A stretch of DNA of 64,000 nucleotides, from NCBI GenBank assembly GCA_026770705.1, contig JANJGN010000008.1, positions 159,836,001 through 159,900,000 of the forward strand, given 5' to 3'. Position 1 is the stretch's first letter. Each line of letters opens with the position of its first letter. This DNA is from Isurus oxyrinchus (Eukaryota). A program made the translations under genes and the position numbers. Positions 1,206 through 47,902 of the stretch are shown piece by piece. The notes beneath the pieces were generated by a model. It ran no database searches, was not told where the DNA came from, and saw only the letters and a list, made by a program, of their open reading frames with translations.

Positions 1206-2668
1206 TTTCCCCCCCAATTCTGACATTAGAAAAATCTGACGTGACAATCCTGATATGAATGTTGCCTGCACAATGTGATTTACATAACCATTCGAAGTTC
1301 TACAGTATTACATTAACATTGTACATTTGTAAGCAAACACAGTGTGTGATTACCCTTCTCTTGTAATGAAACATGTACTCTTCATTATGCAGTCAGTATT
1401 CTTTTCTGTATTATCCAGCTATGCAAAAACAATTGGCAATAAATTCTTGGGTTAAGTTGTTGTTCTGTGCTGTTGTTAACCTTTCTCATTTTTGACTACT
1501 TTTCTATATTGTATTTTAATAATTTTCAGAGCAATACGAATTCTCAATTGTTGTTAAGAGGCATTTTGATGAAAAATGGCACGCAAAGGGAAGCTTTAAC
1601 CCCCCACTCCTCCCCCCCCCCCCCCCAACACAATCATAAGCGATGCATTAGCTTGTCTGGGTATCTGGAAAGTTAGCTCTCAACTATTGTCAGTGTGAGA
1701 ACAAGAGGATAGACATTTTAGCCAATCAGCAGGTCAGAGGTCTTGGTTTATAGGTACACCCCGCATTTGAGCCAAAAGCTCTGCATTTAAGTCCCATTCC
1801 AGGACTTGATACCCTGCCAGATGATCTTTCCAACACTTGCCCACCACTCCCCAAAGGGAAAGGTGTGTGTGTGTGTGTGTTTGTGAAGGTGCCAATTTTG
1901 AGGTAACATTTTTCCCTTCCTCTCTTACAAGGCTTTCCAGCTGCAGGGATCTTGCCGTCAGAAACCAACCTTGTTAATCTCTGTTTATGTTATAATGCAG
2001 TTTGGTGTAGAAAATGCTTTTTTTTTTAAAAAAAAGTTATGTAACCATTCTGCCGCCACTTCGATTAAAACCTGAGACTTGTGTCATTTTTCACAATCCC
2101 GTTAAGGAAAATACTGCCCAGCTACTGATTTCTTTTGCGTTCTGCCAACTCAAAGCAACTATAGTCTCGAATACCTTCAAGACTCCGCCAGTTTGAAAAC
2201 GACAGCATACTGACTTTATTTGAGCCAAGCCGAACCAGTTACGGATTGCAAAATGAGCTCCGTTGGGGGGTGGGTGGGAGGGGGGTGGGGTGGGAGAGCT
2301 ATCTTTTGACACTGGAACAACAGTTTACAACACTGGGATGAATCACGGAAACCTGGCGGAGGGCTTCGTTCTTCTTGTGGTACTCAAAAGCTTTGTGTGT
2401 TCATGCGAGGAACTTGACGTTTTGTCGATACTGTTTCCATGATGACGCATATGAGTAAGTGTGGAGTTGGTGAATTTGCCATTGGTCCTGGGTCATCACC
2501 TCGTTGCTCAATTTTTTCTAAAAATCAGAAAGTAAACACAGAGGGGGGCAATCCATTTCTCGAATTTCAACACTACTCTGGTGAGGAAATTTGGACATAT
2601 TAAACGGGTACCAACATTTCCAGAGTTCAGCTGAAATGGATAAAGTATCCAAACTAGAAATTAAGCAA

Positions 2669-3076
2669 TGAAAGCAAAGAACTGCGGATGCTGGAAACCA
2701 AAAACAAAAACAGAAATACCTGGAAAAACTCAGCAGGTCTGGCAGCATCTGCGGAGAGGAACACAGTTAACGTTTCAAGTCCTCATGACCCTTCAACAGA
2801 ACTAAGTAAAGATAGGAAAGGGGTGAAATATAAGCTGGTATAAGCTATCCCCTTTCCTATTTTTACTTAGTTCTGTTGAAGGGTCATGAGGACTTGAAAC
2901 GTTAAGTAAAAATAGGAAAGGGGATAGCTTATACCAGCTTATATTTCACCCCTTTCCTATCTTTACTTAGTTCTGTTGAAGGGTCATAAGGACTTGAATC
3001 GTCAACTGTGCTCTTCTCCAATGATGCTGCCAGACCTGTTGAGTTTTTCCAGGTATTTCTGTTTCTGTTGTTGTTT
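2669..3076. mobile_element. Short PLE palindromic insertion with nested fold-back
   Basis: TSD TAGA(A/T)ATTAAGCAA at 2655-2668 and 3077-3090; arms match the PLE 3' end at 43180-43317. Confidence 0.9.
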
Positions 3077-3904
3077 TAGATATTAAGCAAGTGACTTTGA
3101 CAGCTGGAAGAGGTTTGGATAATAAGTGTAAAGAAGCCCAGATTCACTCAATGGACCCACCATTCCTGCTATAATTACTGACATTATATCCTCCCACATC
3201 AGTCCACATGCCTTAAGGCTCCCTATTGTTAACTGAAGACAGAGTCGTCGTACTATCTGTCATGGTTTCAGGACCTATTGATCAGGTTTCTCTTAGCTAA
3301 TTAAGAAAACTCATTCGGTTTAAAAGATAAGAGCTTTCGACACTATGTGAGTGCTTATGTCAACAAGCATTAGAAAAGACAATTTGGTATATTTATCCAG
3401 CTTTGTCTCACAGATTGAGAACTGGCAGTGCTACCTGGGTTGAATTTTACAAGGGTATTAGAGTGGATTGATCAAGCTTTTTTTAAATATAATTTCAGGA
3501 AAGCACTTAGGGGAAACACTTTTAAATATCACATTTGCAGATACATACTTCTATTTCTTCCTATTTGTGCTCTGCTATGCACTCGCTGACTGTGAGTGTT
3601 GGCAGGTGAGTTGTTTCTAGGCCTCTCCCAATGCCCATTTGACATTAGTTGCCAGGGAAATGTGCGTGAATATTGAATAGCAGAATAGCCTATTCCTGTT
3701 CCTCTAAATAGATGCTGGCAAACCTACTGTGTATTAGCATTTGCTGACGTGGGTGGGTAATAAATAATGAGCACTCATAGTGCAGACATGATACATGTTA
3801 ATCTGAAAGAACTCTGATTCCTCATGCGCCTCATCCGAGAAATGCCTCTCCCACCTCAGGCTGGAGAAAATGCTGCTCCTATTTGCCAGATATTAAGAAT
3901 CTAA

Positions 3905-4696
3905 AACAAAAACAGAATTACCTGGAAAAACTCAGCAGGTCTGGCAACATCGGCGGAGAAGAAAAGAGTTGACGTTTTGAGTCCTCATGACCCTTCAGCA
4001 GAACTGATTTTTCTTTACAAGGAGAGGGGTGAAATATAAGCTGGTTTAAGGTGGGGGGTGGTGTGGTTGTAGGGACAAGCAAGCAGTGATAGGAGCAGAT
4101 CATCAAAAGATGTCACAGACAAAAGAACACAGAGGTGTTGAAGTTGGTGATATTATCTAAACGAATGTGCTAATTAAGAATGGATGGTCGGGCACTCAAG
4201 GTATAGCTCTAGTGGGGGTGGGGGGGGCATAAAAGATTTAAAAATAAAGGAAATAGGTGGGAAAAGAACAATCTATATAAATTAATGGAAAAAAACAAAA
4301 GGAAGGGGGAAGAAACAGAAAGGGGGTGGGGATGGAGGAGGGAGTTCAAGATCTAAAGTTGTTGAATTCAATATTCAGTCCGGAATATCACCAACTTCAA
4401 CACCTCTGTGTTCTTTTGTCTGTGACATCTTTTGATGATATGCTCCTATCACTGCTTGCTTGTCCCTACAACCGCACCACCCCACCCCTCCCCGCCCCCC
4501 CCACCACCCCACCTTAAACCAGCTTATATTTCACCCCTCTCCCTGTAAAGAAAAATCAGTTCTGTGGAAGGGTCATGAGGACTCGAAACGTCAACTCTTT
4601 TCTTCTCCGCCGATGCTGCCAGACCTGCTGAGTTTTTCCAGGTAATTCTGTTGTTGTATTGGACTTCCAGCATCCGCAGTTTTTTGTTTTTATATC
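3905..4696. mobile_element. PLE two-armed insertion (3' UTR arms)
   Basis: TSD TATTAAGAATCTAA at 3891-3904 and 4697-4710. Confidence 0.92.
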
Positions 4697-7120: not shown

Positions 7121-7447
7121 AATAAAAGCAAAAAACTGCGGATGCTGGAAATCCAAAACAAAAATAAAAATACCTGGAAAAACTCAGCAGGTCTGGCAGC
7201 ATCTGCGGAAAGGGACACAGTTAACATTTCGAGTCCATATGACTCTTCAACAGAACTAAGTAAAACTAGAGAAGAAGTGAAATATAAGCTGGCTAGTCTA
7301 CCCCCCCAAACCAGCTTATATTTCACCTCTTTTCTATTTTTCCTTAGTTCTGTCGAAGAGTCATACGGACTCGAAATGTTAACTGTGTTCCTCTCCGCAG
7401 ATGCTGCCAGACCTGCTGAGTTTTTCCAGGTATTTTTATTTTTGTTT
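7121..7447. mobile_element. Short PLE palindromic insertion inside an L2 element
   Basis: TSD TAGAATACAGGA at 7109-7120 and 7448-7459. Confidence 0.92.
7346..7384 (+). ncRNA. Minimal hammerhead motif (CUGUCGA core, fully Watson-Crick stem II)
   Basis: AGUU-CUGUCGA-A-GAGUC-auacg-GACUC-GAAA-UGUU-AACU. Confidence 0.65.
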
Positions 7448-17117: not shown

Positions 17118-17152
<35 letters not shown>

Positions 17153-19120: not shown

Positions 19121-20951
19121 CTAGGGGCCAAGGAAAGCAGAAAAGCAATAGTTAGTTAATTGTCTATGCTTCAAGCAGTTATGAGAGTGATACTGTCAGG
19201 TTAACAGGCAGCACTGAAGACTTTCGATCTCGCCCTGCAATAAAAGACAAGCTCAAACAATGTATTCCAAGTCTGTCGACCATCCACCAGTTTTTTTTTT
19301 GTTGTCTCTTCCCCCAACCTAAAGTTGCTGCTAACCTCACAATCATAGGGAAAGCCCCGAGAATGAATTCTAGATTAACAGGTCAGTTGGTTCAACGGGT
19401 AATGGAAGTAGGTTCTGACCTGAAATTACGTTCTGATTTTGGTAAACTAACTAGTGACAGAGCCAGCGGCACCTTTATAATTAGTTAAAACTTCAAAACA
19501 ATAGTGTCCCATGATTGTCTCTTGGTAAAAATGTTTTTTAAAAAAATGTAACGAGAAACGATCACCCCCCTGAGCCTGTCGCTTTCCATAGCTTTTGTTT
19601 CAAATGTTGTCTTTGGCACTGCCAAATGCTTTAAATATCAACATTCAGCCAAGTTTCTCCCTTCCTTCCCCCATGAGTAAAGCAAGCAAAACTCCAGGAT
19701 GTCTATTTAATGTTATGCTTTACATCATTCGTTATTAGTACAGATGATTTGGCATAGTTTGATGTCTACTTGCTGTGTACAGTACAATTTATCACCCACA
19801 TTTGAACAAGTTCCAGGGGCAGTGAAACGATCAAGTCAGAATTTGCAGGTGTAATAACAGGAAGGCTGTCGGTACTCACTGTTATTACTGACAGCAACAC
19901 TGGCATCTGCATATACACATTTCAATGCAGATTTCTGGAAGTTACTGTCATTATTTGAATGGTGAATGGTGAACAACATTCCTTTGCCACTGACTGCAAA
20001 ACTCAGCCTGATGTTCCTGAGCGGATTTGAATGATGAGAAATCAATTGCCAACAATGTAACACCGACCTTACTCCATAATCAGGAACCATCATGTTTTAA
20101 GCAGCACTTGATCACTTACATCTATACTTTTAATTCAGTCCAATTCTGAGACAAATATTCATTCTGTCGTGTTTTTCTTTATTGATTGATTGTGTTTTTT
20201 TGCCCTTAAGTTCCAAATATCAATATAACTGTGGCAGAAATAAAATTTCTTCCAACCTCAGCTCAATTGATGCTTAATAATCATCGACTTATGCAGTTCA
20301 GATCTTGCAGTATAAATTAAATAGCCTGCTTTGATCTGCGTTACCTATTCCTCTGATTGTGTAAAGCAACAGCAGATATCTGTCTGAGCCTGAGTTACTG
20401 GTGATTATAAAGCCAGAACTTGAGGGCCCAAAAGAGAGACCTTACTGTGATTTCTTGGTTGCAGTGCTATTGATCTTGGTTCTGCTGCATAAATATGCGT
20501 AGTTTTAAGCTAATGAGTGACAGGCATAGCTTTTGTCAGTGATTTAAATATCTTTACTTCCTCTTCACTTGAAGGAAAGGAGATTAATCACATGATGTAT
20601 GTGGGCCACTGTCAGCTTAAATGAATAAACAGATGACACAGAAGTGAGAGTCAACACTAAGCTACACTGGAGTTTCCGACTTACCGATGCTGCATGAAAC
20701 AGTCTTTTATTTTAGTTACTGAGAATAAGAATGGGTTATAATATGTTCACAAGGCGTAACAATATTAACAAACTTCGATCATACATGGGCAATTTTAACA
20801 AAGGTTTGCCACTTTGTTTCTAAAGAGTTCACAACAAAGTGCTCAAGTTGAGGCAGGTAAGTAAATAATTCAAAGTACAGAGATTGCCAGGAAAAGCACA
20901 GCATGTACTATGGTAAGCATTTAATTTAAATACAGTACTAACGTACATTGA

Positions 20952-21159
20952 CAAAAACAGAAACAGAAATACCTGGAAAAACTCAGCAGGTCTGGCAGCA
21001 TCGGCATAGGAGAGCACAGTTGATGTTTCGAGTCCTCATGACCCTTCAACAGAACAATTCTCCTCCGCCAATGCTGCCAGACCTGCTGAGTTTTTCCAGG
21101 TATTTCTGTTTCTGTTTTTGTTTTGGATTTCCAGCATCCGCAGTTTTTTGCTTTTATCT
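20952..21159. mobile_element. Short PLE palindromic insertion
   Basis: Degenerate TSD CTAACGTACATTGA / CTAATGTACCTTGA at 20938-20951 and 21160-21173. Confidence 0.88.
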
Positions 21160-21949
21160 CTAATGTACCTTGATCTGTTCACAGAGGTATGTGAATCTAG
21201 CTCATTGACATGCGTTTGATGTTGCAGGTGAAGATGTGTATCTTCTGTATCCATTGTTCCACCAGTGGAGGCCGTGCCTTCCAGCTGTTCAGGCCCTAAA
21301 CTCTGGAATTCTCTAACCAAACCTCTCTACTTTCCTCACCTTCATCAAGATATCCCTTAAAATCCATCACTTTGACCAGGCTTTCGATCATATGTTCTGG
21401 TATCTCGATGTAGCTCAGTATCAAATTCCATCGGATAGAAGTGAAGTGCCTTGGAACATTTTGCTGCTTTAAAGGCACTATATAAATGCAAGTTGAGATG
21501 GTGATGTTAAGTTGGGGCACTTTTATTTTGCTGCTATGCACTGACTTCGACTACACTGCTATTGTGCAATCTACAGCATTCCCTGGCGTAAGCTGCCTGA
21601 CCTGCAGCGTTCTGGAGGCAGTGAAGAGAAATGTTGTTTGTGTTTGGAAGTCAGGCAAGGGTTGATAAGTTTAAGTAACATTCATGCCATGCAAGTGCCA
21701 GGCAATGACCATCCGCAACAAGAGAGAGTCTAACCACATTCCCTTGACATTCAATGGTATTGCCAATTCCAAATCTCCCAACATCAACAACCTGGGAGTT
21801 AACATTGAAACTCAAACGGGCCAGCCACATGAATGCTTTGGCTACTAGAGCAGGTGAGATGATGGGTATTCTAGAGTATGACCCCACATCCTGTCTCACT
21901 AAAGCCTTTCCATCAGCTAAAAGGCAAGTGAGGAGTGCAATGGAATACT

Positions 21950-23970
21950 AAGATAAAAGCAAAATACTACGGATGCTGGAAATCTAGAACAAAAACGCCT
22001 GGAAAAACTCTGCAGGTCTGACAGAATCTGCAGAGATGGATGCACTTGACATTTTGAGTCTGTATGACCCATCATCAGAACTAAAAAATATAGAAATGAG
22101 ATGAAATATAAGCTGGTAGAGGGGGATGGGACAGGTAGAGCTCGATAGGGGGGCAGTGATAGGTGGAGGCCAAGAAGAGATTGCCAAAGATGTCAAAGAC
22201 AAAACGACAAAGGGATGTTGACAGTGGTGATATTATCTAAAGGATGTGCTAATGGGGACATTAAGGGTAGCAAGCAGGACAAGCTAGTGGCAGATGGCCC
22301 TAGTGGGGGTGGGGGGGAAGGGATCGAAATGGGCTCAAAGGTGGAGATGAAACAGTAGATCAAAATAAAATTAAAAATAGGTGGGAAAAGAAAAATATAT
22401 TTGTTAAAAAATTATAAATTATTGAAAAAGGGGGGACCAGAAAGGGGGTGGGGATGGAGGAGAGAGTTCATGATCTGAAATTGTTGAACTGAATATTAAG
22501 TCGGGAAGAGTGTATAGTGCCTAGCCGGAAGATGAAGTGCTGTTCCTCCAGTTGGCGTTGAGCTTCACTGGAACATTGCAGCAGGCCAAGGACAGACATG
22601 TGGGCATGAGAGCAGGGTGGGGTGTTGAAATGGCAAGCAACAGGGAGGTCTGGGTCATGCTTGCGGACAGACCGAAGGTGTTCCGCAAAGTGGTCACCCA
22701 GTCTGTGTTTGGTCTCTCCAATGTAGAGGAGACCACATTGGGAGCAACGAATGCAGTAGACTAAGTTGAGGGAAGTGCAAGTGAAATGCTGCTTCACTTG
22801 AAAGGAGTGTTTGGGCCCTTGGACGGTGAGGAGTGGGGTTGGGGGGGTGGGGGGGGGGGGGAGTAAAGGGACAGATTTTGCACCTTCTGCGATTGCATGA
22901 GTGGGTGCCATGGGAGGGGGTTGAGGTGTAGGGGGTGATGTAGGAGTGGACCAGGGTGTCCCGGAGGGAACGATCCCTGCGGAAAGCCGCTGTTTGGAGG
23001 GGGGGGGGTGAAGGGAAGATGTTGTTTGGTGGTAGCATCATGCTGGAGTTGGCGGAAATGGCGGAGGATGATCCTTTGATCGCGGAGTGATAAGTGAGGA
23101 CAAGGGGGACCCTATCATGGTTCTGGGAGGGAGAGGAAGGTGTGAGGGCGGATGCGCAGGAGATGGGCCGGACAAGGTTGAGGGCCCTGTCAACGACCGT
23201 GGGTGGAAAACCTTGATCAAGGAAGAAGGAGGACATGTCAGAGGAACTGTTTTGGAAAGCGGCATCATCGGAACAGATGCGACGGAGGCGAAGGAACTGA
23301 GAGAATGGGATGGAGTCCTTACAGGAAGCGGGGTGTGAGGAGCTGTAGTCGAGGTAGCTGTGGGAGTCGGTAGGTTTGTAATGGATATTGGTGGACAGTC
23401 TATCACCAGAAATTCAGACTGAGAGGTCAAGGAAGGGAAGGGAAGTGTATTAATTTTGCTTCCAATTTCCACCCCTCCCATCATTGTCACGTGGTCCATC
23501 ACTGACACTTTCCACCTCCTTTCCGATCCCCCTTTTTCTAATAATTTATAATTTTTTTACAAATATATTTTTCTTTTCCCGCCTATTTTTAAATTTATTT
23601 CGCTCCACCTTTTAGCCCATTTTGATCCCTTCCCCCCACCCCACCCCAACTAGGGCCATCTGCCACTAGCTTGCTAGCCTTAATGTCCCCATTAGCACAT
23701 CCTTTAGATATTTTAACCACCGTCAACACCCCTTTGTCCTTTTGTCTGTGACATCTTTGGCAGTCTCTTCTTGGCTTCCACCTATCACTGGCCCCCTATC
23801 GAACTCTACCTATCCCACCCCCCCCTCCCCCCACCCCACCAGCTTATATTTCATCTCATTTCTTTATTTTTTATTTCTGATGATGGGTCATACAGACTCG
23901 AAATGTCAACTGGATCCCTCTCCGCAGATGCTGTCAGACCTGCAGAGGTTTTCCAGGTATTTTTATTTTT
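21950..23970. mobile_element. PLE two-armed insertion; the long minus arm carries a GIY-YIG remnant (22468-23447)
   Basis: Perfect 15-bp TSD GTGCAATGGAATACT at 21935-21949 and 23971-23985; YCIRCSQCGLLYIGET on the minus strand; interrupts a CR1-like element. Confidence 0.95.
23873..23911 (+). ncRNA. Minimal hammerhead ribozyme motif with canonical CUGAUGA core
   Basis: CUGAUGA-U-GGGUC-auaca-GACUC-GAAA-UGUC-AACU. Confidence 0.75.
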
Positions 23971-24720: not shown

Positions 24721-24792
24721 CATAAAAACAAAAAACTGCGGATGCCGGAAAGACCTGCTGAGTTTTTCCAGGTATTTCTGTTTTTGTTTTGG
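24721..24792. mobile_element. Minimal 72-bp two-armed PLE insertion
   Basis: TSD CTTTCCTTTCAAA at 24708-24720 and 24793-24805; about 30 bp antisense tail joined to about 42 bp sense short end. Confidence 0.85.
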
Positions 24793-28730: not shown

Positions 28731-29459
28731 TAATGTCTGGAACTTTATCCGTAAGGTATGATTCCGTGAGGATGACTATGTCGCTTGACTAGCTCTCCCA
28801 CTTTTGGCACTAGCCTCCAGATGTTAGTAAGGAGGATTTTGCAGGGTTGACAGGGCTGAGTTTGCCATTGTCGTTTCCAGTGCCTAGGTCAATGCCGGGT
28901 GGTCGGTTTGTTACAACTGAGTGACTTGCTAGGCCATTGAAGAGACAACCACATTACTGTGGGTCTGGAGTCACACGTAGGCCAGACCAGGGAAGGATGG
29001 CAGATTTCCTTCCCTAAAGGGCATTAGTGAACCAGATGGGTTTTTACAACAATTGACAATGGTTCCATGGTCATCACTAGATTTTTAATTCCAGATTTTT
29101 ATTGAATTCATATTCCTCTACCTGCCATGGTGGGATTCAAACCCAGGAGCATTACCCTCGTTCTCTGGATTACTAGTCCAGCGACAATATCACTATGCCA
29201 ATGCCTCTCTGTCCAACCGTTGCAGTAATTCAGTTGGAAAGTGGTATTCCCAGTGCCCTGTTTAAGATTTCTCCTTCATCCAATACCATTTAAAGCAAAT
29301 TATAACACACTGTTCAGTTCCTACTGTATGCAAAATGGCTCCCTGCACAACATCACTTTGCAAATTCCTTGTGAGTTGTTTTGCTACCTTGCTGAGGGAT
29401 GGTGACACCATCCAAAAAAATACAAGTTTTATTTATTATGTTACACTCAATTGGTAGTC

Positions 29460-29915
29460 CAAGCTTGACACCATCCAGGACAAAGCAGCCCATTTGACTG
29501 GCACCACATCCACCACCTTCAACATCCACTCCCTCCACACAGTAGCAGCAGTGTGTACCATCTACAAGATACACTGCAAGAAATCACCAAGGCTCCTTAG
29601 ACAGCACCTTCCAAACCCATAACCACTACCATCTAGAAGGGCAAGGGCAGCAGATAGATGGGAACACCACCATCTGGAAGTTTCCCTCCAAGCCACTCAC
29701 CACCCTGACTTGGAAATATATCGCCGTTCCTTCACTGTTACAAGGTCAAAATCCTGGAGTTCCCTCCCTAACAGCACAATGAGCGTACCAAACCACATGG
29801 ACTACAGTGGTTGAAAAAGGCAGTTCACCATCACCTTCTCAAGGGCAATTAGGGATGGGCAATAAAAAAATGCTAACCTAGCTAGTGATGCCCACATCCC
29901 ATGAATGTATGAAAA
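29460..29915 (+). mobile_element. CR1-group LINE 3' end
   Basis: Inverted homolog of 27320-27740. Confidence 0.8.
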
Positions 29916-30154: not shown

Positions 30155-30310
30155 AAAATAAAAACAGAAAATGTTGGAAAAAAAATCTCAGCAGTTTAGT
30201 ACTTAATGTTTCAGGCCTCTGACCTTGTTTCTCTTTCTACACAGATACTGCCTAACAAGTATTTTCTGTTTTTATTTCAGATTTTCAGCATCTGCAGTAA
30301 TCTACTTTTC
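30155..30310. mobile_element. Old degenerate PLE palindromic remnant
   Basis: Diverged AAAACAGAAAATG-TGGAAA left end and TTTCAGCATCTGCAG tail on the right. Confidence 0.55.
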
Positions 30311-31200
30311 GATTAAATTAAACCAAGTTTGAAAATGTATTAATTTTAGAATAACTTGAAAAATAGAGAAATAAACACGAAAAATTTTGGCTGTAAGCAA
30401 TGCTTAGTTTAAACTGATCAGAATTTAGCAGAGTGGGAGTGGTGGAGGGAGGGGGAGTGGAGTAAGCCTTATATATCATAATTTTTAACGCATCTTGAAA
30501 CATCTTAAGAAATTCTAATTTAAGATCAGTTGCTTGTCTGCATGGTTGTGTACAAGAAGGATACAGTCATGAGGGAGACAGTAGTAGATACCAGTAATCT
30601 AGAGACCTAGACTAATTCTCTAGAGATGTGAGTTCAGATCTCAACATAGTGGCTAGCGGAGTTTAAATTCAATTAATTAAAAGATCTGGAAGAACCAACT
30701 GGTTCACTAATGTCCTTCAGAGAAGGAAATCTGCCATTCTTCTAGGCCACCTGGCCTATAGGTACTCCAGGCACACTGCCCTCCAAAATGGCCTAGTAAG
30801 CCACTCAGCTCACCGCTGCATGCTCCAGGGCAATTACAGATGGGTGACAATGCTGGCCTTGCCACTGACACTCACATCCTATGATAGAATTTGGAAAAAT
30901 GTGTTTGGTGCTTCAAGCTCGCTGCTTATCCATATGCAGCAGTTAAAGTGGGTAGAAGGAAGCAGCGGGTGTGCAGAAGGTTGAGATGGCTGCCTGAAGA
31001 CAGAAATGGCTAGAATCCACAGCCATTCCCAGTCACAGGCCAATGTTTAACGTCCCTTGTTTTTCAAAGGCGAAGGGAGACAGAAAACCTATCAAATCCG
31101 TGGTCAGGGCAGCAAATCGGACTTTGTCTTTGATTCTGTCAGAGCTGGGTCAAACCATTTTATAGTTGAGAAGTTAATTGAGCTTAGTGCTCTAGTTAGC

Positions 31201-31444
31201 TGCAGAGATAAAACCAAAAAACTGCAGATGCTGGAAATCCAAAACAAAAAACAGAATTACCTGGAAAAACTCAGCAGGTCTGGCAGCATCGGTGGAGAAG
31301 AAAAGAGTTGACGTTTCGAGTCCTCATGACCCTGTTCTGTTCTGTTCTGTTGAAGGGTCATGAGGACTCGAAATGTCAACTCTTTTCTTCTCCGCCGATG
31401 CTGCCGGACCTGCTGAGTTTTTCCAGGCAATTCTATTTTTGTTT
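31201..31444. mobile_element. Short PLE palindromic insertion
   Basis: TSD TGCTCTAGTTAGC at 31188-31200 and 31445-31457; (GTTCT)n slippage at the centre. Confidence 0.92.
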
Positions 31445-32294
31445 TGCTCTAGTTAGCCATTCGATTCAATAGAATTAACTTGAAAATCCAATTGTACTTT
31501 GTCACATCGTGTGGTGAAATTAGCTGTATGAGCAATGAATAGCAATAACCTGATCTGAAATAGGACACTTCAAACTAATTTTTGAATACCCACAGTTTTT
31601 CCAATTTGTGTTGATCCAAGTGGATTAGTTTCTTGTGACAGGGCACAGTAACAGGATGGCCCATTTTCCTTTCTAACTTTTTTTGAAGTGTTTACTCATT
31701 TGATATACCCTTCCCCAACAAAAGCTTTTCAGCCTTTCAGCCTGCTCCTATATGTAAAATATGGGCACAGTGAGTCGGCCCAATTAAAACCCACCACTTG
31801 AACATAATTATCCCTCAATTGATATATACAATTTACATAGAGAATGTGCCTCCTTGTAGCTAAGAGTAAAATAGCACTCGGAGGAAAAGCAAAAGAAGGA
31901 ATTGTCTCCAGAAGTTTTGAGAATACTTTTCCTGTTAAGTTTGTTGTACTGCTGAAGTATTTTCTGAAATAAAATAAGTAGCACTACATGAATTCTCATG
32001 ATTAGATCATTAGTGCATGCAGGAACAGGATTGTTCTAAAAACGTTGATGTTAAGTATTCCGATACTTCATAAAATCCCCATTAGTCGGAAGTCTTAGCT
32101 TCTTTCGCAGTGAAAAAAAATTATTCTCATTACAGAAACAGCCCAGGTCTTGATGAAATTTAAGCAAAAAAGCTTGTAGGACGAGTATACTTCATTTTTG
32201 TGATAAAGGCATTGGAATAGAGTCCATTAAAATGAACTGCATGAAGAGAATCCAGGTTTGAATGTCAGCTGAAATCCAAATTACAAAGTGGTTT

Positions 32295-33020
32295 CTTACT
32301 CAAATCCCTCCATGCCCCTGACCCTCCCATCTCTGTAACTTCCTTCAGCCCCACAATGCTCCAAGATATCTGTGCTCCTCTAATTGGGGCCTCTTGTTCA
32401 TTCCCAATTTTGATTGTTCCACCCTTGATTGTCCCACCCAGGCCCCAAGAACTGGAACATCCTCCCCTATACTCTCCCCTCTCTACCTTGCTTTTCTCCT
32501 TTAAGACATTCCTTAAAACAGGGCTAGGGAACGTATGGCCCATGGGCTGGGTCCGGCTCAATTTCATCCGGCCCGCAGCAAGATTTCTAAAAATACAGCC
32601 CTATGACAGCAATGCCTTCAAAATAGCATTTATCACCATCATCGTTACAAATTTGCTTTGGATAAAAGCGTCAGCTAAATTACTATATCAATATTTAACA
32701 ATATAATATTCAAATTCAACCATCACATTAAAACAGCGGGTGAGTTGAACATTTCTATATTCGCTCTAAAAGAAACTAAATTAAGTTGATTTTTATGATT
32801 TTTATGTGTGTGGCCCGTGACTGATTTTGTCTGTGTGTGAATGGCCTGTGATAAGAAAAAGATTTCCCATCCCTGCCTTAAAAACCTCCCTCTTTGACCA
32901 ATCAAAGCTTTTGATCAGCTGGCCTAATCTCTCCTTATGTACCTCGGAGTCATGCTTTGTTTTATAAATCTTCTGTGAAGCGTTTCATTATGGTACAGGT
33001 GCTATTTGCATACAAATCGT
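32295..33020 (+). mobile_element. L2-like LINE 3' end split by the hAT MITE
   Basis: FKTFLK|T.LFDQ reads across the MITE TSD. Confidence 0.65.
32519..32875. mobile_element. hAT MITE, same family as 55725-60752
   Basis: CAGGG...CCCTG termini, perfect 8-bp TSD CCTTAAAA, shared subterminal sequence GTGGCCCGTGACTGATTTTGTCTGTGTG. Confidence 0.88.
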
Positions 33021-33546
33021 TGTTGTTGTGTTTGTTCTCTGAATGAGATATCTGACATTGAAATACTAGAGGCTTTTGTGGCCGCTTCTGTCATGAACAC
33101 ATTTCAACCTGTGCAGAAAGTTATAACATGAGGAGTACGCATCAATTTATTATCTTCTTTCTCCCTCTGTAAGGCTGAATGCTGCTTTTTTCTCTATGTT
33201 TGTTGAAGCATTCCATTATGTGTCAATGTAGCAACATATTTTTTTTGCAAATGTAATTAATCACTTTGACAAGTTGCATTGAAAATTATGAGGTGATAAA
33301 TTGTGCTTTTCGGCAGTATTGTTTATGTCACCCTGAAGCAATGTAAGGCATGGTGCTCGACACAAAGGAACATTGTTTCTCTGAATTACTCGATTACAAA
33401 GTGAATAGATCTTGATAGAACCATCATGATTGTGTTTCAGGAAAAGAGCCATCTCAGGATCGAAAAATTTGATAATGTAACCAGGTTGGTTGCAATGAGA
33501 TGCATCACTGGAGCTCTGAAGTTGACCCCAACACCCTGACTACTCA

Positions 33547-33777
33547 GATAAAATCAAAGAAAACTGCGGATGCTGGAAATCCAAAACAAAAACAGAATTA
33601 CCTGGAAAAACTCAGCAGGTCTGGCAGCATCGGCGGAGAAGAAGAGAGTTGACGTTTCGAGTCTTCATGACCCTTCGACAAGTTCTGTCGAAGGGTCATG
33701 AAGACTCGAAACGTCAACTCTCTTCTTCTCCGCCGATGCTGCCAGACCTGCTGAGTTTTTCCAGGTAATTCTGTTTT
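33547..33777. mobile_element. Near-perfect PLE palindromic insertion inside a Vingi-like LINE
   Basis: TSD CCCTGACTACTCA at 33534-33546 and 33778-33790; arms appear identical by eye, so the insertion is probably young. Confidence 0.93.
33681..33719 (+). ncRNA. Minimal hammerhead motif (CUGUCGA core)
   Basis: AGUU-CUGUCGA-A-GGGUC-augaa-GACUC-GAAA-CGUC-AACU; mirror copy on the minus strand immediately to the left. Confidence 0.7.
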
Positions 33778-34469
33778 CCCTGACTACTCATGCTGGGCAC
33801 ACGGACCCCCCCCCTCCCCCACCCCACCCCAATCTATCACATTGCATTGACCATCTGTGAAGCTCAGCAAATCAAGGAAAATAAACACTTCCCTATCCAT
33901 CAGAACCTCACCAATGTCCCTGGCCTCTGCTTGAAGTCACATAAGCCCTTTTGGACACATGCACACGACTTCAGGCAATACGATTTCAAACCTGTAGAAG
34001 CTTGGGAAAATGAATGGTCTTCACAAGAAGTTACAAACAAAACACTTCATGAAAGGCCTGACACAGAAGGTCCTGGTTTCGACCTCCCATAAAGCTCATG
34101 GGCATCCCAAAACCACATGCGCACAAACCATGGCTGATGTGGATATTTGATGCACAAATGGAAAATTAAAAACTCTCCTGTGTGCGACTGTGATCACCCA
34201 GAACAGATCATGGAACACATAACAACTCAGTCCCCGACACAGATACAAAGGAGGTATTACAGCGATACACACCCCCACTCCTGACATAATATCCTGGTTT
34301 GACCACCTTGATATAAAATTACAGTTGTTGCTCTGTACCCAGCCATACAAATGAAGAAGACCAGGTTGGTCAATTTCACAGAATTATAGAATTTTACGAT
34401 ACAGAAACAGGCCATTTGGCCCATCACTGGCGCTTTTCTTTCACAGGAATCACTTGGTCAAATCCCATT

Positions 34470-34700
34470 ACAGAAGCAAAATACTGCAGGTGCTGGAAAT
34501 CTGAAAGAAAAACAGAAAATTTTGGAAATGCTCAGCATGTCAGACAGGCTGTGTGGAGAGAGAAACAGTTTTCAGGTCAACAACTTTTCATCAGACCAGT
34601 TCTCATGAAGGATCATGGAACTGAAATTTTAATTTTGTTCCTCTTTGCACAGATAAGCCTGACCTACCAAGTATTCCCAACATTTTCTGTTATTATATTA
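34470..34700. mobile_element. Old degenerate PLE palindromic remnant
   Basis: Tailed left end (ACTGCAGGTGCTGGAAATC), short right end, decayed hammerhead-like cores at the centre. Confidence 0.6.
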
Positions 34701-39500: not shown

Positions 39501-40358
39501 CAGGACGTAGCGTTGTGGAAATAAAGGGGGATCTTGGCCATGTCCTTGCTTCATTTAATTACATAAGGAGTGCTAATGATGGCCAGGCACAGCAGGTCAC
39601 AGAGGCAGCACAGGAGTTTGAAATATTTATGAGTAAGGATGAAGTCAAACACACTGTAATATCACCATATCACCCAGCGTTGAATGGTGCTGCAGAAAGA
39701 AGTCTACAGATTGTGAAGAGGTCTTTGCAGAAGTACTTGCCAGGTGATAAGGTAGGCAGTAACTTCCACGTTTCTCTTTGACACAGGCTGGGCAAATTTC
39801 TCTTCTCTTACAGTCTACAATAGGTTGCTCACTTATTGTTTAAATATGATCCTAGGACAGAGTTTAGCTTGCTTAAAAACAAAAAACTGCGGATGCTGGA
39901 AATCCAAAACAAAAACAGAATTACCTGGAAAAACTCAGCAGGTCTGACAGCATCGGCGGAGAAGAAAAGAGTTGATGTTTCTAGTCCTCATGACCCTTCA
40001 ACAGAACTGAGCGAATATAAGGAGAGGGGTGAAATATAAGGTGGGGGGGGCAGAGAAGTGGGGGGTGGGGGTGGTTGTAGGGACAAGCAAGCAGTGATAG
40101 GAGCAGATAATCAAAAGATGTCACAGACAAAAGAACACAGAGGCATTGAAGGTGGTGATATTATCTAAACGAATGTGCTAATTAAGAATGGATGGTAGGG
40201 CACTCAAGGTACAGCTCTAGTGGGGGTGGGGTGGAAAGGCTAGCAGGGCATAAAAGATTTAAAAATAATGGAAATAGGTGGGAAAAGAAAAATCTATATA
40301 AATTATTGGAAAAAACAAAAGGAAGGGGGAAGAAACGGAAAGGGGGTGGGGATGGAGT

Positions 40359-41136
40359 TCAAGACCTAAAGTTGTTGAATTCAATATTCAGACCGGAAGG
40401 CTGTAAAGTGCCTAGTCGGAAGATGAGGTGCTGTTCCTCCAGTTTGTGTTGGGCTTCACTGGAACAATGCAGCAAGCCAAGGACAGACATGTGGGCAAGA
40501 GAGCAGGGTGGAGTGTTAAAATGGCAAGCGACAGGGAGGTTTGGGTCATTCTTGCGGACAGACTGCAGGTGTTCTGCAAAGCGGTCGCCCAGTTTACGTT
40601 TGGTTTCTTCAATGTAGAGGAGACCACATTGTGAGCAACGAATGTAGTAGACTAAGTTGGGGGAAATGCAAGTGAAATGCTGCTTCACTTGAAAGGAGTG
40701 TTTGGGCCCTTGGACGGTGAGGAGAGAGGAAGTGAAGGGGCAGGTGTTACATCTTTTGCGTGGGCATGGAGAGGTGCCATAGGTGGGGGTTGAGGAGTAG
40801 GGGGTGATGGAGGAGTGGACCAGGGTGTCCCAGAGGGAACAATCCCTACGGAATGCCACCAGGGGGGCTGAAGGGAAGATGTTGTTTGGTGGTGGCATCA
40901 TGCTGGAGTTGGCAGAAATGGCGGAGGATGATCCTTTGAATGCAGAGGCTGGTGGGGTGATAAGTGAGGACAAGAGGGACCCTATCATGTTTCTGGGAGG
41001 GAGGAGAAGGTGTGAGGGCGGATGCGCGGGAGATGGGCCGGACACGGTTGAGGGCCCTGTCAATGACCGTGGGTGGAAAACCTCAGTTAAGAAAGAAGGA
41101 GGACATGTCAGAGGAACTGTTTTTGAGGGTAGCATC
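40359..41136 (-). pseudogene. Inverted PLE RT C-terminus/GIY-YIG fragment, frameshifted
   Basis: Reverse-complement copy of about 42069-42845 with a +1 indel near 40885. Confidence 0.9.
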
Positions 41137-41318
41137 CCAGCTTCCTGTAAGGACTCCATCTAGAACATCAAACCATTGTTTCCAGGACTGTCACTGACCT
41201 CATCTCCTCTGGTGATCTTCCTCCCACAGCTTCCAACCTGATAGTTGCCCAACCTCAGACAGCCCGCTTCTACCTCCTACCCAAAATCCACAAACAGAAC
41301 TGTCCCGGCAGACCGATC

Positions 41319-42845
41319 GTGTCAGCTTTCTCCTGCCCCATGGAACTCATTTCTCGTTATCTTGACTCCCTTCTCTCTCCCCTTGTCCAGTCCCTTCCCA
41401 CCTACATCCGTGATTCCTCTGATACCTTACGTCACATCAACAATTTCCAGTTCCCTGGCCCCAACCGCTTCCTCTTCACCATGGACGTCCAATCCCTCTA
41501 CACCTCCATTCCCCACCAGGATGGTCTGAGGGCCCTTAGCTTCTTCCTCGAACAGAGGCCTGAACAATCCCCATCCACCACTACTCTCCTCCGTCTGGTT
41601 GAACTTATTCTCACACTGAACAATTTCTCCTTCAACTCCTCTCACTTCCTCCAAATAAAAGGTGTGGCTATGGGTACCCACATGGGCCACAGCTATGCCT
41701 GTCTCTTTATGGGGTATGTGGAACATTCCTTGTTCCAATCCTACTTCGGCCCCCTTCCACAACTTTTTCTCCGGTACATCGATGATTACTTCGGTGCTGC
41801 TTCATGCTCTCGTCGGGACTTGGAAAAATTTATTAATTTTGCTTCCAATCTCCACCCCTCCATCATTTTCACATGGTCCATCTCTGACACTTCCCTTCCC
41901 TTCCTTGACATCTCTGTCTCAATCTCTGGTGATAGACTGTCCACCAATATCCATTACAAGCCTACTGACTCCCACAGCTACCTCGACTACAGCTCCTCAC
42001 ACCCTGTTTCCTGTAAGGACTCCATCCCATTCTCTCAGTTCCTTCGTCTCCGTCGCATCTGTTCTAATGATGCTACCTTCAAAAACAGTTCCTTTCACAT
42101 GTCCTCCTTCTTCCTTAACCGAGGTTTTCCACCCACAGTGGTTGACAGGGCCCTCAACCGTGTCCGGCCCATCTCCCACGCATCCGCCCTCACACCTTCT
42201 CCTCCCTCCCAGAAACATGATAAGGTCCCCCTTGTCCTCACTTATCACCCCACCAGCCTCCACATTCAAAGGATCATCCTCCGCCATTTCTGCCAACTCC
42301 AGCATGATGCCACCACCAAACACACCTTCCCTTCAGCCCCCCTGGCGGCATTCCATAGGGATAGTTCCCTCTGGGACACTCTGGTCCACTCCTCCATCAC
42401 CCCCTACTCCTCAACCCCCACCTATGGCACCTCTCCATGCCCACGCAAAAAATGCAACACCTGCCCCTTCACTTCCTCTCTCCTCACCGTCCAAGGGCTC
42501 AAACACTCCTTTCAAGTGAAGCAGCATTTCACTTGCATTTCCCCCAACTTAGTCTACTGCATTCGTTGCTCACAATGTGGTCTCCTCTACATTGGAGAGA
42601 CCAAACGTAAACTGGGCAACTGCTTTGCAGAACACCTGCAGTCTGTCCGCAAGAATGACCCAAACCTCCCTGTCGCTTGCCATTTTAACACTCCACCCTG
42701 CTCCCTTTCCCACATGCCTGTCCTTGGCTTGCTGCATTGTTCCAGTGAAGCCCAACGCAAACTGGAGGAACCGCACCTCATCTTCCGACTAGGCACTTTA
42801 CAGCCTTCCGGACTGAATATTGAATTCAACAACTTTAGATCTTGA
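41319..42845 (+). CDS. PLE reverse transcriptase + GIY-YIG endonuclease, 5'-truncated, 508 aa open
   Basis: RT motifs MDVQSLYTSIP, GVAMG, RYIDD; C-terminal LVYCIRCSQCGLLYIGET (GIY-YIG with CxxC), EH and GLN motifs. Confidence 0.93.
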   Translation: MSAFSCPMELISRYLDSLLSPLVQSLPTYIRDSSDTLRHINNFQFPGPNRFLFTMDVQSLYTSIPHQDGLRALSFFLEQRPEQSPSTTTLLRLVELILTLNNFSFNSSHFLQIKGVAMGTHMGHSYACLFMGYVEHSLFQSYFGPLPQLFLRYIDDYFGAASCSRRDLEKFINFASNLHPSIIFTWSISDTSLPFLDISVSISGDRLSTNIHYKPTDSHSYLDYSSSHPVSCKDSIPFSQFLRLRRICSNDATFKNSSFHMSSFFLNRGFPPTVVDRALNRVRPISHASALTPSPPSQKHDKVPLVLTYHPTSLHIQRIILRHFCQLQHDATTKHTFPSAPLAAFHRDSSLWDTLVHSSITPYSSTPTYGTSPCPRKKCNTCPFTSSLLTVQGLKHSFQVKQHFTCISPNLVYCIRCSQCGLLYIGETKRKLGNCFAEHLQSVRKNDPNLPVACHFNTPPCSLSHMPVLGLLHCSSEAQRKLEEPHLIFRLGTLQPSGLNIEFNNFRS

Positions 42846-43217
42846 ACTCCCTCCTCCATCCCCACCCCCTTTCTGTTTCTTCCCCCTTCCTTTTGTTTTT
42901 TCCAATAATTTATATAGATTTTTCTTTTCCCACCTATTTCCATTATTTTTAAATCTTTTATGCCCTGCTAGCCTTTCCACCCCACCCCCACTAGAGCTAT
43001 ACCTTGAGTGCCCTACCATCCATTCTTAATTAGCACATTTGTTTAGATAATATCACCACCTTCAACACCTCTGTGTTCTTTTGTTCCTTTGTCTGTGACA
43101 TCTTTTGATTATCTGCTCCTATCACTGCTTGCTTGTCCCTACAACCACACCACCCCCACTTCCCCCCCCCCCCACCTTAAACCAGCTTATATTTCACCCC
43201 TATCCTTAGATTCACTC

Positions 43218-43256
43218 AGTTCTGTTGAAGGGTCATGAGGACTCGAAACGTCAACT
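43218..43256 (+). ncRNA. Minimal type I hammerhead ribozyme motif (A6U core variant) in the PLE pLTR
   Basis: AGUU-CUGUUGA-A-GGGUC-augag-GACUC-GAAA-CGUC-AACU: stem I AGUU/AACU, stem II GGGUC/GACUC, palindromic ACGU helix III, predicted cut after 43252. Confidence 0.75.
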
Positions 43257-46200
43257 CTTTTCTTCTCAGCCGATGCTGCCACATCTGCTGAGTTTTTCCA
43301 GGTAATTCTGTTTTTGTTTTAGCTTGCTTAAGCATGAGATCAATAATTAAGTAGAAAAGCAAGATCTGAAACTTAAATCAGATATGAAACTTAGGAGAGT
43401 TCAGTACTGATCAGAAGGTCATCGTGCAAAACCACCAAAGTGATGAGGAGAAATGTGTGATTGGGGTTGTTATAGAGGATTATGTCTCAATATATTCTGA
43501 ACCTCAGATTAATTTATATATTGTTTAAATTCTGACCAGAACAGACAACAAAATGATGGGCACCCGAGGATCATCTGACTTCTCTTGTGGTTTGAGGGAA
43601 CAAAATGAACCTTCCAGACTCAATGCCTTTACCTAAAACTAATTCAAAGGGGTAATTTCAAATTGAATGGTCATTCAGATACAAGGAAACAGACTGTGTC
43701 AAACTGTCAAGGTGTGAAAGCTACAACAAAGGATGTATAATCAATCTAACCAGCCACCTTATTTGGAAAAGGTCTTTGACCTTGAAGAAAGGTCACATGA
43801 TGAGACAGCCATACATTCTGTTTGCTTTAAAAAGGAACAGAAGCTGTTCTGTGGACAGAGTTGCATCAGAAAGCCATTGAATCAGCTGCAAGTCATCTAA
43901 GCAACCGAAGTATTAAATAGCAATACCTTAAAAGTGGAAGATGGACTCCCCCTAGTCTGTTGAGTTCACCTGAGAATTTGCCTCCTGGAAATTCGACTAC
44001 AAGAAGTTCTGCAGATTACGGAGAATCCTTGGCTTTGCAAAACCTCTACTTCAACTAAGAAACTACAAATATGCCACAAAAGAGACTGAGACAACCACAA
44101 ATTATAATTGTATTGTTTTACCATCATCTGTATCTAGTACTTGTGTGTGTGATAGTGTGTGTGACTCAAATGAGTGAAATATCATGTTTTAAACATCTGG
44201 GGCAAGTGTGTGATAATAAAGAACATTCATTTTATTTAAAACTTACAAAAAGCTTGCTGCTGGGATTATTTAGATTGGTACAATCACCCTCAGGGTAAAA
44301 AATGCACACCTTTTACATACAAACATATTGATCTCAGGCAATATAAAGGAACACATAAATTCTGTCCATGGCAAAATTGGGTGCTGCAACCTGGGATAAA
44401 ATCTATTGCAAACATGTCAAATCTGACTTTAAAGGAATTGGAAGTAGAAGGGGAAAAGTAACATAGCCAAAATTGATGAAATAAGAAACAAAATGGATTA
44501 TAGCAGAAGGCTTTGTGAATGCTAGCAATGGAAAATAAGATGACTACTTTCAATGTTTTAGCATTTATGCAAGAGGAGGATTTATCTTGGCAAAAATTAG
44601 CATCCCTAAACATAGAACAGTTAAAAGCCATAGTTAAGCAGGCAGAACTTAATGCACATAAGAAAGCATGGAGACCTGAGGTACTAAAGAAACTGGCTGA
44701 GAACCTTGGCCTCACTCCAGATTCGGAATAGGCAGAAGATACAGAATTTGAAACAGGCCAGATAATCTTAGTCAAAGTTTGCCTAGAAGAACAGAGGCTA
44801 GAGCTAGATTTTCAGGCAAGGAAGGAAAGGGAGGAAATGGAATTCCAAGAGAGGCAGGAGGAGCGTGTTCTCTAGCTTGAAAAAGTTGAGAAAGAGTTAC
44901 AGGCACAGAAAGATCAGGAACAGGAACAAATTGCAGCAGCTAGAGAGAACCTGACTTTACCTAATGGTGTTTAAATACCCTTAGACCAGAGACAAATTTT
45001 GGTTTCCTAAAGTATTCCCGATTTATCCCCAAGTTTGAAGAGGAGAATGTGGAAACTTCCTTCACAGCTTTTGAGGAACTGACAGTTCAATTACAATGGC
45101 TAGCAGAGTTTTGGGCACTCCTGATACAAGGTCAGCTGGTCAGAAAAGCCCATGAGATTTATTCCATGCTGCCTGCTGGGATTTCTCTGTCCGTCATGAT
45201 CACATAAAGGCTGCTATTCTCAGTGCCTGTGAACCCAGACTGGAGGCATACTACCAACAATCCTGGAAATCCTGTAAAATGCCCACACAGACTGCAATGG
45301 AATTTGAGAGAACGAAATAGTTAGCATTTTACCGATGGATCCGAGCTCTAAAAATTGAACCCGATGAAGGGTTAGAGAGATAGTACTGCTAGAGGAGATT
45401 GAAAACTGCCTCCCATACAGCTTCTAAACTCATATAGAGGAACAAAGGGTTTCGAACGTCAGAGACACAACTATCATGACTGATGGCTATGATTTAACCT
45501 GTAAACCAAAATAAATTTGGATCTAGTAACTCTTTCCAGCAAGGGAGAGATAAGAAGGAGGTAAATGAAATAGTAATCAACTCCAGAGGAAAGGAGAGTA
45601 GGAAACACAGGGCAGATCAATCCGCATCTTTAAAAAGAAAGAATCTGTAAAGTAAATCAGCGTGGACACTGATACCCCCGGTGCAGCAAGCCTGGACACA
45701 AAAGAGAACTGTTGGTTCACAAAGAAACCAATAGGGGGAGCTGCACTCAGAACCATGTCAATTGCTTTGAAAGCACCGAGCTCAGACCCAAATGGGTTGG
45801 GGCGGGGTAGGACAAGATACCTAGCAAGGCTTCTTGTAAAAAGAAAAAAAAATTACTCCTTTTGAATCACAAGCTTCAAGAAAATAAATAACCATTTTTA
45901 GAGATACAGGGGGTTTTTGAACACTATTTGTAGTGAAGGCTGCTGAGCTGCTGTCTGGAAACAGGACAAACAGCACAGTGCTAGTCAAAGGGCTCACTGG
46001 CACATGTTTAAAGGTTCCCCTAGTAAAAGATCACCTGTAGAACAGTGGGTCATCTGTGTAGTGAGAGTTAGGATTATTCTGAGCTTGCCCATAGGGGGGA
46101 GTGAACCTATTGTTGGGAAATGACTTGGTGGGGTACCAGGTACTATGCCCATAAGGTCAAATACAATCCACAGAGACCGGAGAAACAGAAGGGAATCTCA

Positions 46201-47044
46201 AAAATTCTGTTCAGCTACAGAGAGCTGAAGGAGCCCCTAACATCCTGCAGGGGGTGGTACAGCCAATAAAGATTAAGGAAATCGAGGGCAAGCCAGAGAA
46301 CTTTCCGGAGGCCAGCAGATGGCCTACCAAAGTAAAAAGGGTCAAGACAGAACCCATAAAAGCTAAAAAGACCAAAACCAGACCAGTAGAATTTAAAGAG
46401 GCCAAGGCAGCGTTCCTGGGATTGAAAAAAAGAATGAAGGGCCTGAACCAGAGTTCTGGTTAGCAGACACTTTGTTTCAGGATTTAAATAGAGACAGAGA
46501 AAGTTCACAAACCAGCAGTCAGACAGTGAGGAAGATGCCTCACCCAGTTGAAGTGCCACAGGGCAGTGGAACCAAAGCTGTCCATCCACCTGTGGGCAAT
46601 AGTGTCCCAAAGGACATGGGGCAGATTGGGGACCAACCCATCCCAAAGGAAGTAGAAACAGGGAAGTCAATACGCCTTAAGACAAACTGCATTTGTGAAA
46701 GCCAAAAGGGAAGTCTAAGTTCAGCTAACATATAATTAACCACAAAACTTTCACAGGATTAGGTTCAAAACTTAAATCCACCTGAACCCAGCAGTTCAGT
46801 TTCCAAGGCAACTGACGATAAGGTGCCAGGGGTGAACACAGACACCCTCACAGGGGTATGAAAACAATACACCTCACACTATCACCCTCGAAATAAGAAT
46901 CAACAATGAACCAGGACCTAAATTATCAGACTCATTGGTTGTGGAAGCAGCCATAAAAGGGTAAAGAACTTTACAGGCAACCCAACAAAATAATCAGCAA
47001 TTTACATATCACAAACTTCGAAACAGACTCCAACCTTGTGAAAC

Positions 47045-47721
47045 AAAAACAAAAATACCTGGAAAAACTCAGCAGGTCTGGCAGCATCTGCGGAGAGGCT
47101 TATATTTCACCTCTCTTCTAGTTTTATTTAGTTCTGTTGAAGGGTCATTCGGACTCGAAATGTTAACTGTGTTCCTCTCTGCAGATGCTGCCAGATCTGC
47201 TGAGATTTTCCAGGTATTTTTATTTTTGTTTTGGATTTCCAGCATCCGCAGTTTTTTGCTTTTACCTTATTGTTTAATTGACTGCCACTTCTCTTCAAGG
47301 AATGCCTTCCTTGAAGAAGTATTGCTCTTCTCTCCATCAGGATTTTCATATCTCTCTTTTGCCTTGTTCACCTTCATTGCTTTCCATTTCTCTCCTGGTG
47401 TTTGACAAGGTGTTTACTAAAACCTGCTTTACATCTTTTGGTTATCTCCACCTATCACTGGCCCTCTATCCAGCTCTACTTGTTGTCCGCCCCCTCACCC
47501 CCACCCCCCCCCCCCCCCCCCCCCCACCCCCCACCGCCCCCCCGCCTTAAACCAGCTTATATTTCACCTCTCTTCTATTTTTACTTAGTTCTGTTGAAGG
47601 GTCATTCAGACTCGAAACATTAACTGTGTTCCTCTCTGCAGATGCTGCTAGACCTGCTGAGATTTTCCAGGTATTTTTGTTTTTGTTTTGGATTTCCAGC
47701 ATCCGCAGTTTTTTGCTTTTA
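47045..47721. mobile_element. PLE insertion: short inverted arm plus tandem pLTR mini-element
   Basis: TSD TCCAACCTTGTGAAAC at 47029-47044 and 47722-47737; direct repeats at about 47098-47265 and 47555-47721. Confidence 0.9.
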
Positions 47722-47902
47722 TCCAACCTTGTGAAACCTGACTCCTCCCTAGGAGCCAGCATGGAGTTCGAATTTCCATCAACAGCTAACTGCATTGAGA
47801 ATCATATGTCCATTAGAGTTACTTGAGTAGCGATATTAATTAAGCCACCGGATAACACGTAACTGCATGGGGGTTGTAAGAAAAAGGAATGTGACAGAGA
47901 AA

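Follow-up and report, generated by a model that had tools for sequence, protein, structure and literature searches.

In the anole Anolis carolinensis, the Penelope-like element (PLE) PAc, a member of Poseidon, carries a reverse transcriptase with a C-terminal GIY-YIG endonuclease and a hammerhead ribozyme in its pseudo-long terminal repeat (pLTR); both target strands are nicked and extended from two internal start sites that bound a tail, and a dimer is predicted (PMC11167929). In the main text of that work, the two sites are not matched up within single insertions, and neither a stagger length nor an account of inverted arms is given; PLE steps after first-strand synthesis are called unvalidated there. 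Inverted pLTRs with a tail often at one end only have been ascribed to endonuclease resolution or antisense self-priming (PMC8557442, PMC3846280), and the origin of tandem or inverted ends and of tails has been called undefined (PMC8557442). A 34-bp repeat was described in D. virilis (PMC2377424), and PLE promoter, intron and hammerheads have been covered (PMC2377424, PMC4209133, PMC11722881). Here, we analysed a stretch of 64,000 nucleotides (nt) from Isurus oxyrinchus (contig JANJGN010000008.1, positions 159,836,001 to 159,900,000, forward strand; ‘the window’ in the following), which holds ten two-armed insertions of a PLE. The nearest named proteins come from sharks and rays (58-65% identity), in keeping with a cartilaginous fish. 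These insertions combine one tailed with one untailed end, and they are probably made by programmed twin priming, in which one unspliced RNA is primed from two fixed sites about 35 nt apart to give head-to-head insertions.

Each of the ten insertions consists of a minus-strand and a plus-strand PLE 3' arm, joined head-to-head with the 3' ends outward. Positions on the element have their origin where the shared core (..TTTTTCCAGG) ends, and we refer to the tailed outer end as L and to the untailed outer end as S. One end of each type was found in 10/10 insertions, with the tail on the left in seven and on the right in three. Target-site duplications (TSDs) of 12-16 bp flank the insertions; nine were called by script, one of them with 1 mismatch, and the degenerate 16-bp TSD of insertion 4 was read by eye. 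In a chance control of 400 random left/right pairings, a TSD score of at least 9 was reached in 10/400 and of at least 11 in 1/400. The preliminary description of this DNA had reported these ten insertions, their starts, their TSDs and their unlike ends, and all of this was recovered.

To describe the pairing of ends, 265 sequences (1.86 Mb with overlaps) were drawn from the assembly of 4.98 Gb. They comprise the window, three blind 200-kb blocks and loci picked by core, tail or continuation; the sampled loci lie mostly on contig C1 and belong mostly to younger subfamilies, so that the pairing tally is one of this sample and not genome-wide. From 356 unique element blocks, the 36 cut by a locus end were dropped and 320 were kept, with six types corrected by eye. 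The two end peaks that had been predicted did appear, L near +47 to +60 and S near +10 to +20, but with a scatter of about +/-5 nt around each site.

Among 114 two-armed insertions with TSD, 99 were L/S, 12 joined L to an end upstream of S, and there was one each of S with an upstream end, S/S (L153) and L/L (L263). Counting canonical ends alone, 99/101 pairs were L/S; like pairs, whose frequent occurrence would speak against the rule, thus came to one of each kind. Two-armed insertions lacking a TSD included 12 L/S, nine with an upstream end and one L/L-like case (L188). A second, anchor-based search made for exceptions gave 107 L/S, one L/L and one S/S among 109 TSD pairs. It alone found L263, the sole true L/L, with a 14-bp TSD; the left end of this copy starts S-like and then continues as L, which may reflect a slip. 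Loci not selected by tail showed 66 L/S against one S/S (p 9e-19 against 0.5), and tail-selected loci 32 L/S against one L/L. Five L/L calls of the block script were rechecked by eye: four were miscalls, and the fifth was L188. Overall, the L/S rule is strong but not strict, and the word ‘strict’ in the preliminary description goes too far, given that 15/114 insertions deviate.

Single-armed blocks, about as frequent as two-armed ones, numbered 150, namely 86 L (including both halves of L263) and 64 S, with a TSD in 30/86 L and 23/64 S copies; 35 further fragments had no recognisable end. Either site thus works alone, but the arms of one insertion almost never share an end type. The blind 600 kb held 14 single-armed against eight two-armed copies, which indicates that the window is enriched in the latter.

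Both ends also look primed. TSD length was 14 bp in 44/99 and 13-15 bp in 78/99 insertions. In the 44 sites of exactly 14 bp, the primer strand followed W|NNY..T on either side; 85/88 strands had a pyrimidine at +3, and the target profiles of the L and S sides correlated (r 0.78), positions -1 and +1 being partly shaped by boundary calling. Primer-template match at 14-bp TSDs exceeded the permuted value on the L side (1.47 vs 0.60 nt, p 0.003) and on the S side (1.11 vs 0.78 nt, p 0.003), and several of the upstream ends match the template by 3-4 nt or more at the stray start. Thus the genomic signature by which L1-type twin priming is recognised, namely both target 3' ends priming cDNA with the arms inverted in one TSD, is present. 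The earlier proposal that both nicks prime from two fixed RNA positions is supported by the L/S pairing, the mirror-image target preference and the microhomology at both ends, and additionally by tail-only L arms that abut S and by the anole PLE in vitro (PMC11167929). The element's own -85 motif was considered as a cut site and dropped for a mismatch in register.

In the case of arm lengths, the independence stated in the preliminary description is contradicted. The 5' reaches of L and S arms correlate, with a Spearman coefficient of 0.72 in 106 simple L/S insertions (108 less 2 complex ones) and of 0.64 in the 76 widely sampled ones. Both arms or neither extended past -100 in 68/76 (Fisher 1e-12), and where both did so rho was 0.53 (n=30). 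The S arm reached further 5' than L in 63/96 unequal cases, in some by over 1 kb. Overlap between arms had a median of 104 nt, rose to kilobases and was 25 nt or less in 2/106; two L arms consist of the tail only and abut the S site (24721 in the window, and one in a block of contig C10). Long pairs ended within 25 nt of each other in 9/46 cases against 2.4 expected, and some insertion centres are short palindromes.

The two arms of an insertion also resemble each other in sequence. Arm-to-arm divergence had a median of 2.4%, compared to 5.5% between insertions (n=91), and arms share subfamily marks, e.g. in 17/17 at -46. Private pLTR changes were found 63 times in one arm and five times in both. 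Among 20 long insertions the partner was the nearest arm in 14, and insertion-specific variants were shared in 51 vs 145.

The natural full-length copy on contig C10 gives a pLTR-flanked unit of 3,344 nt. Copies have tandem or inverted pLTRs, 5' truncation and an optional tail, as expected of endonuclease-bearing PLEs. An open frame of 918 amino acids (aa) is intact in L322, with matches to RVT_1 (E 3e-6) and GIY-YIG (E 0.002), both under Pfam's curated cut-offs; two cysteines within VYC..LYIG and a DKG motif agree with the GIY-YIG endonuclease with CCHH of this group. The linker between reverse transcriptase and endonuclease reads CPRKKCNTC (in P0001), i.e. CX2-5CxxC, which defines Neptune/Nematis, Penelope and Poseidon having no linker Zn-finger (PMC8557442). 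Because of this linker, and without a reverse transcriptase tree, we assign the element to the Neptune/Nematis type rather than to Penelope/Poseidon. It would be like PAc in its domains, its pLTR hammerhead, its two internal start sites bounding a tail, the nicking and extension of both strands and a predicted dimer, and unlike PAc in the linker, which is described as absent in Poseidon, and in the place of the sites, which lie here in a U-rich, intron-like leader before the ATG and in PAc inside the open reading frame (ORF) (PMC11167929).

Along the pLTR, a TATA-like box (about -117) is followed by an initiator-like A at -85, a hammerhead from -85 to -46, a GT..AG stretch and the ATG. The predicted minimal hammerhead has the core CTG(A/T)NGA..GAAA with an extra base after position 9 and a palindromic ACGT (compared by eye with PMC4209133), and its cut is expected at -50, in line with other endonuclease-bearing PLEs; no hammerhead match was obtained at the Rfam gathering score. 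The GT..AG stretch of 86-88 nt contains a branch-like TTGAC and is a putative retained intron. The 5' reaches of the arms peak at -84 to -89. The TATA-like box lies 29-32 nt before the A at -85, a spacing typical of promoters, and in 6/8 copies of a family of relatives in metagenomes the TATA stands at -65 to -67 relative to the ribozyme cut, the same distance as here. We read the pile-up at -84 to -89 as probable run-off at a predicted RNA 5' end; a pause at the ribozyme would leave a similar pattern. The ribozyme cut at -50 was also considered, and it is not the main 5' stop.

Altogether, the most probable explanation of these observations is the following. The two strands would be cut by a protein dimer, which is itself predicted, at nicks spaced by 14 bp. 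Each of the resulting 3' overhangs would serve as primer for reverse transcription of a single unspliced RNA, the one starting from S and the other from L. Only L would be free for the second primer because the S-primed RNA:DNA hybrid occupies the S site; PLE reverse transcriptases are not known to have an RNase H. The polymerase that starts at L would either stop at S, giving a tail-only arm, or displace the S cDNA and follow it, so that the RNA is copied twice, and the two cDNA 3' ends would then join via short microhomology. If just one cDNA is captured, a single-armed copy would result, and the ends upstream of S would stem from stray priming by microhomology. Primers placed in the 5' leader, some 100 and 137 nt away from the start at -85, would lead to run-off and thereby to the commonest palindromes of about 230 bp, and priming in a downstream pLTR to kilobase arms.

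Several points weigh against this arrangement. Apart from the deviating pairs given above, loci anchored on the tail show no bias towards further-reaching S arms (14 vs 16), the partner arm was not the nearest in 6/20 long insertions, and in L186 the two arms differ by 6.5%, even though its L arm has a neighbour at 2.3%. Arm lengths could also become correlated if palindromes lost their centres by deletion after insertion. Long arm overlap on one RNA needs long strand displacement, for which no case by any PLE reverse transcriptase was found in the literature examined. In the anole system, no difference in start site was seen between strands, but both ends of one molecule were not read (PMC11167929). 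The transcription start, intron and hairpin are predictions from sequence. Finally, one RNA and two RNAs of the same source are not separable by sequence, and shared variants and coupled lengths fit both.

This last point leads to the alternative that both nicks prime on two RNAs, which an asymmetric dimer would hold, possibly paired via the palindromic ribozyme stem, with one subunit on L and the other on S. Long arm overlap would then be explained without strand displacement, minimal PLE hammerheads have been proposed to act as dimers (PMC4209133), and the discordant arms of L186 would fit. However, an extra asymmetry is needed to avoid L/L and S/S, and neither tail-only arms ending at S nor the joint choice of leader or downstream pLTR (the 68/76 above) is predicted by itself. 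We regard two RNAs as rather unlikely.

It is more doubtful still that both arms start at the same site and that the tail is added or removed later, when the endonuclease resolves an intermediate. PMC8557442 calls this resolution most likely, the D. virilis endonuclease is reported to recognise its own DNA only when the tail is present (PMC11167929), and the excess of microhomology on the S side is modest. Yet both sites are start sites of reverse transcription in vitro (PMC11167929), TSDs abut intact S ends with the same target signature as at L, and 23/64 single-armed S copies carry a TSD.

A fold-back, in which one arm comes from a cDNA or antisense RNA that primes itself at the centre (the antisense version is found in PMC3846280), would account for the correlated arm lengths, the excess of long pairs with nearly equal ends and the short palindromes at some centres. 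A strand started at L would require the L arm to reach at least as far as S, whereas S reaches further in most unequal pairs and two L arms are tail-only; a strand started at S cannot supply the tail. Fold-back is thus contradicted as a general route and quite improbable overall; it could survive only for the subset with near-perfect centres.

In the case of authenticity, one contig each from three runs in three studies of a related organism A, which differs from the window by about 1-2%, joins position 33546 to 33838 with 45 letters between them, where an empty site with one TSD would have 47; insertion 8 therefore has an empty site in that organism. A run of organism B, which shows no differences from the window and may be its source, extends across the left junction of insertion 8; for insertion 7, both organisms have the outer junctions. 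No short-read contig bridged a palindrome centre in the region 30700-34300. That the palindromes arose in assembly or each from two independent insertions is hardly credible: although their centres are unbridged, TSDs spanning both arms are far above chance, the arms differ by private mutations, and outer junctions and an empty site come from independent contigs.

Relatives in metagenomes show the same form. Among 80 loci there were three TSD-flanked inverted PLEs (L337, L368 and L385, with TSDs of 14, 13 and 12 bp), which have a shared tail of about 55 nt on one side only. L329 and L380 are inverted without a TSD, and the other loci were cut short or hold unrelated repeats.

Returning to twin priming on one RNA, the preliminary description had further suggested that a tail hairpin positions the two sites. 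The pairing of GATGCTG with CAGCATC is predicted with p about 0.8 (shuffle p 0.008-0.02); the helix would close a loop of 49 nt ending at the S site, and L would lie in the loop of a weaker second helix. The leader region as a whole, however, folds no better than shuffles (z +1.2), and no compensatory change in the helix was seen among the subfamilies of this genome. The metagenome family has a different predicted helix, CGGTGG/CCACCG, whose spacing is nearly the same; it is of full length in only 3/8 copies (p about 0.1 each) and of 5 bp in two. A hairpin that sets the two priming sites is therefore plausible and unproven, the folding being suggestive only.

The coordinates of the features in the window are collected in Table 1. 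The L arm of insertion 5 carries the 3' part of the ORF on the minus strand, and the arms of insertion 6 do not overlap.

Table 1. Features of the element and its insertions, in positions of the window.
Feature	Position	Strand	Remarks
Insertion 1	2669..3076	.	L left / S right, TSD 14 bp (1 mismatch), small extra central piece
Insertion 2	3905..4696	.	S left / L right, TSD 14 bp
Insertion 3	7121..7447	.	L/S, TSD 12 bp
Insertion 4	20953..21158	.	S/L, degenerate 16-bp TSD (20937-20952, 21159-21174), read by eye
Insertion 5	21950..23970	.	L/S, older subfamily, TSD 15 bp
Insertion 6	24721..24792	.	tail-only L arm (+52 to +22) and S arm (-21 to +20), TSD 13 bp
Insertion 7	31201..31444	.	L/S, TSD 13 bp
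Insertion 8	33547..33777	.	L/S, TSD 13 bp, arms identical over 92 nt
Insertion 9	39877..43317	.	L/S, 3.4 kb, ORF sequence in both arms, TSD 14 bp
Insertion 10	47045..47721	.	S left / L right, partial tandem of internally deleted unit, TSD 16 bp
5'-truncated ORF, 564 aa	41151..42845	+	reverse transcriptase with YIDD, CX4CxxC linker, GIY-YIG-type endonuclease
TATA-like box	43188..43191	+	30 nt before predicted start; putative function
Minimal hammerhead ribozyme (predicted)	43218..43256	+	predicted start 43218 (position -85), predicted cut after 43252
Predicted 7-bp helix	47184..47246	+	GATGCTG (47184-47190) with CAGCATC (47240-47246)
Intron-like GT..AG stretch	47214..47299	+	internal pLTR; holds S (~+15) and L (~+52); ATG at 47302

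Several further observations concern the copies of the element. The part of insertion 10 at 47098-47721 is built of an internally deleted, non-autonomous unit of about 457 nt in partial tandem, and like forms occur in L203, L204, L209 and L173. Older diverged copies of the same family, single-armed or decayed, lie at 30256-30309, 34474-34649 and 47906-48004, the last of them with a 15-bp TSD. In L325 (G000:C9:52027500-52034500), both tandem units, at 714 and 3896, share an internal deletion of about 130 nt, which fits a multimeric or circular RNA template. Same-strand matches about 3,325 nt apart (G000:C1:12159811-12166491 and 69034825-69038184) suggest full-length tandem arrays, and one arm of L323 (217-3799, TSD 14 bp) covers a full unit almost exactly, starting at -20 and continuing round to about -3. 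Exact matches genome-wide numbered 121,866 for the core 31-mer, 103,448 for a 33-mer common to both end types, 39,002 for the tailed 42-mer and 3,798 for a 31-mer beyond the tail. The window also contains inverted pairs that do not belong to this PLE (26328-27152 and 27411-29789; 199 nt at 95% and 264 nt at 85%), the second overlapping LINE-like frames, and a tRNA-like match at the Rfam gathering score on the minus strand (1121-1206), probably the head of a short interspersed element. The frames at 53218-53730 and 58463-59520 we take, by eye, to be a Harbinger-type transposase-like frame and a Gypsy-like gag/protease fragment.

Compared to LINE-1 (L1), where both nicks likewise prime one RNA and microhomology joins the pieces (length R 0.76), the second site is fixed here (S in 99/114) and both arms copy the same part of the RNA, in some cases more than 2 kb of it, which makes palindromes; in LINE-1 the second site falls at random and the pieces hardly overlap, with a median duplication of 22 bp (bioRxiv 10.1101/2024.08.27.596794; L1 twin priming is also treated in bioRxiv 10.1101/2024.12.14.628481). 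One-sided tails, inverted pLTRs, two start sites of reverse transcription, both-strand extension and L1 twin priming are already in print. New here are a TSD length that peaks at 14 bp, a base preference shared by the two nicks and microhomology at both ends, and further that arms share source variants, that their lengths correlate and that many stop at a predicted TATA/initiator start. Unlike earlier, qualitative PLE accounts (PMC8557442; PMC3846280), the pairing is counted here, kilobase arms are possible and priming signatures are given for both ends. No paper on the pairing rule or on PLE twin priming was found in the literature searched, and Fig. S2 of PMC11167929 may bear on pairing.

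The pairing rule, the symmetric 14-bp cut and the coupled arms give sharp predictions for the existing in vitro system, and the intact L322 copy suits reconstitution. If twin priming is indeed programmed, the element would exploit both nicks by design, whereas L1 does so by accident, and tens of thousands of palindromes in one genome would have this origin, as extrapolated from the two-armed copies of the blind 600 kb and the core matches in 4.98 Gb. It is possible, and for now a tentative extension, that this is the normal integration route of endonuclease-bearing PLEs, with a symmetric dimer, a 14-bp cut in a bipartite target and one RNA copied twice from structure-defined sites, where the polymerase that trails would displace the cDNA that leads. 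If so, the tail, the inverted pLTRs and the strong-stop-like palindromes of about 230 bp from the element's own 5' leader would all follow from a single reaction, and the same route would be followed across animals with different tail sequences.

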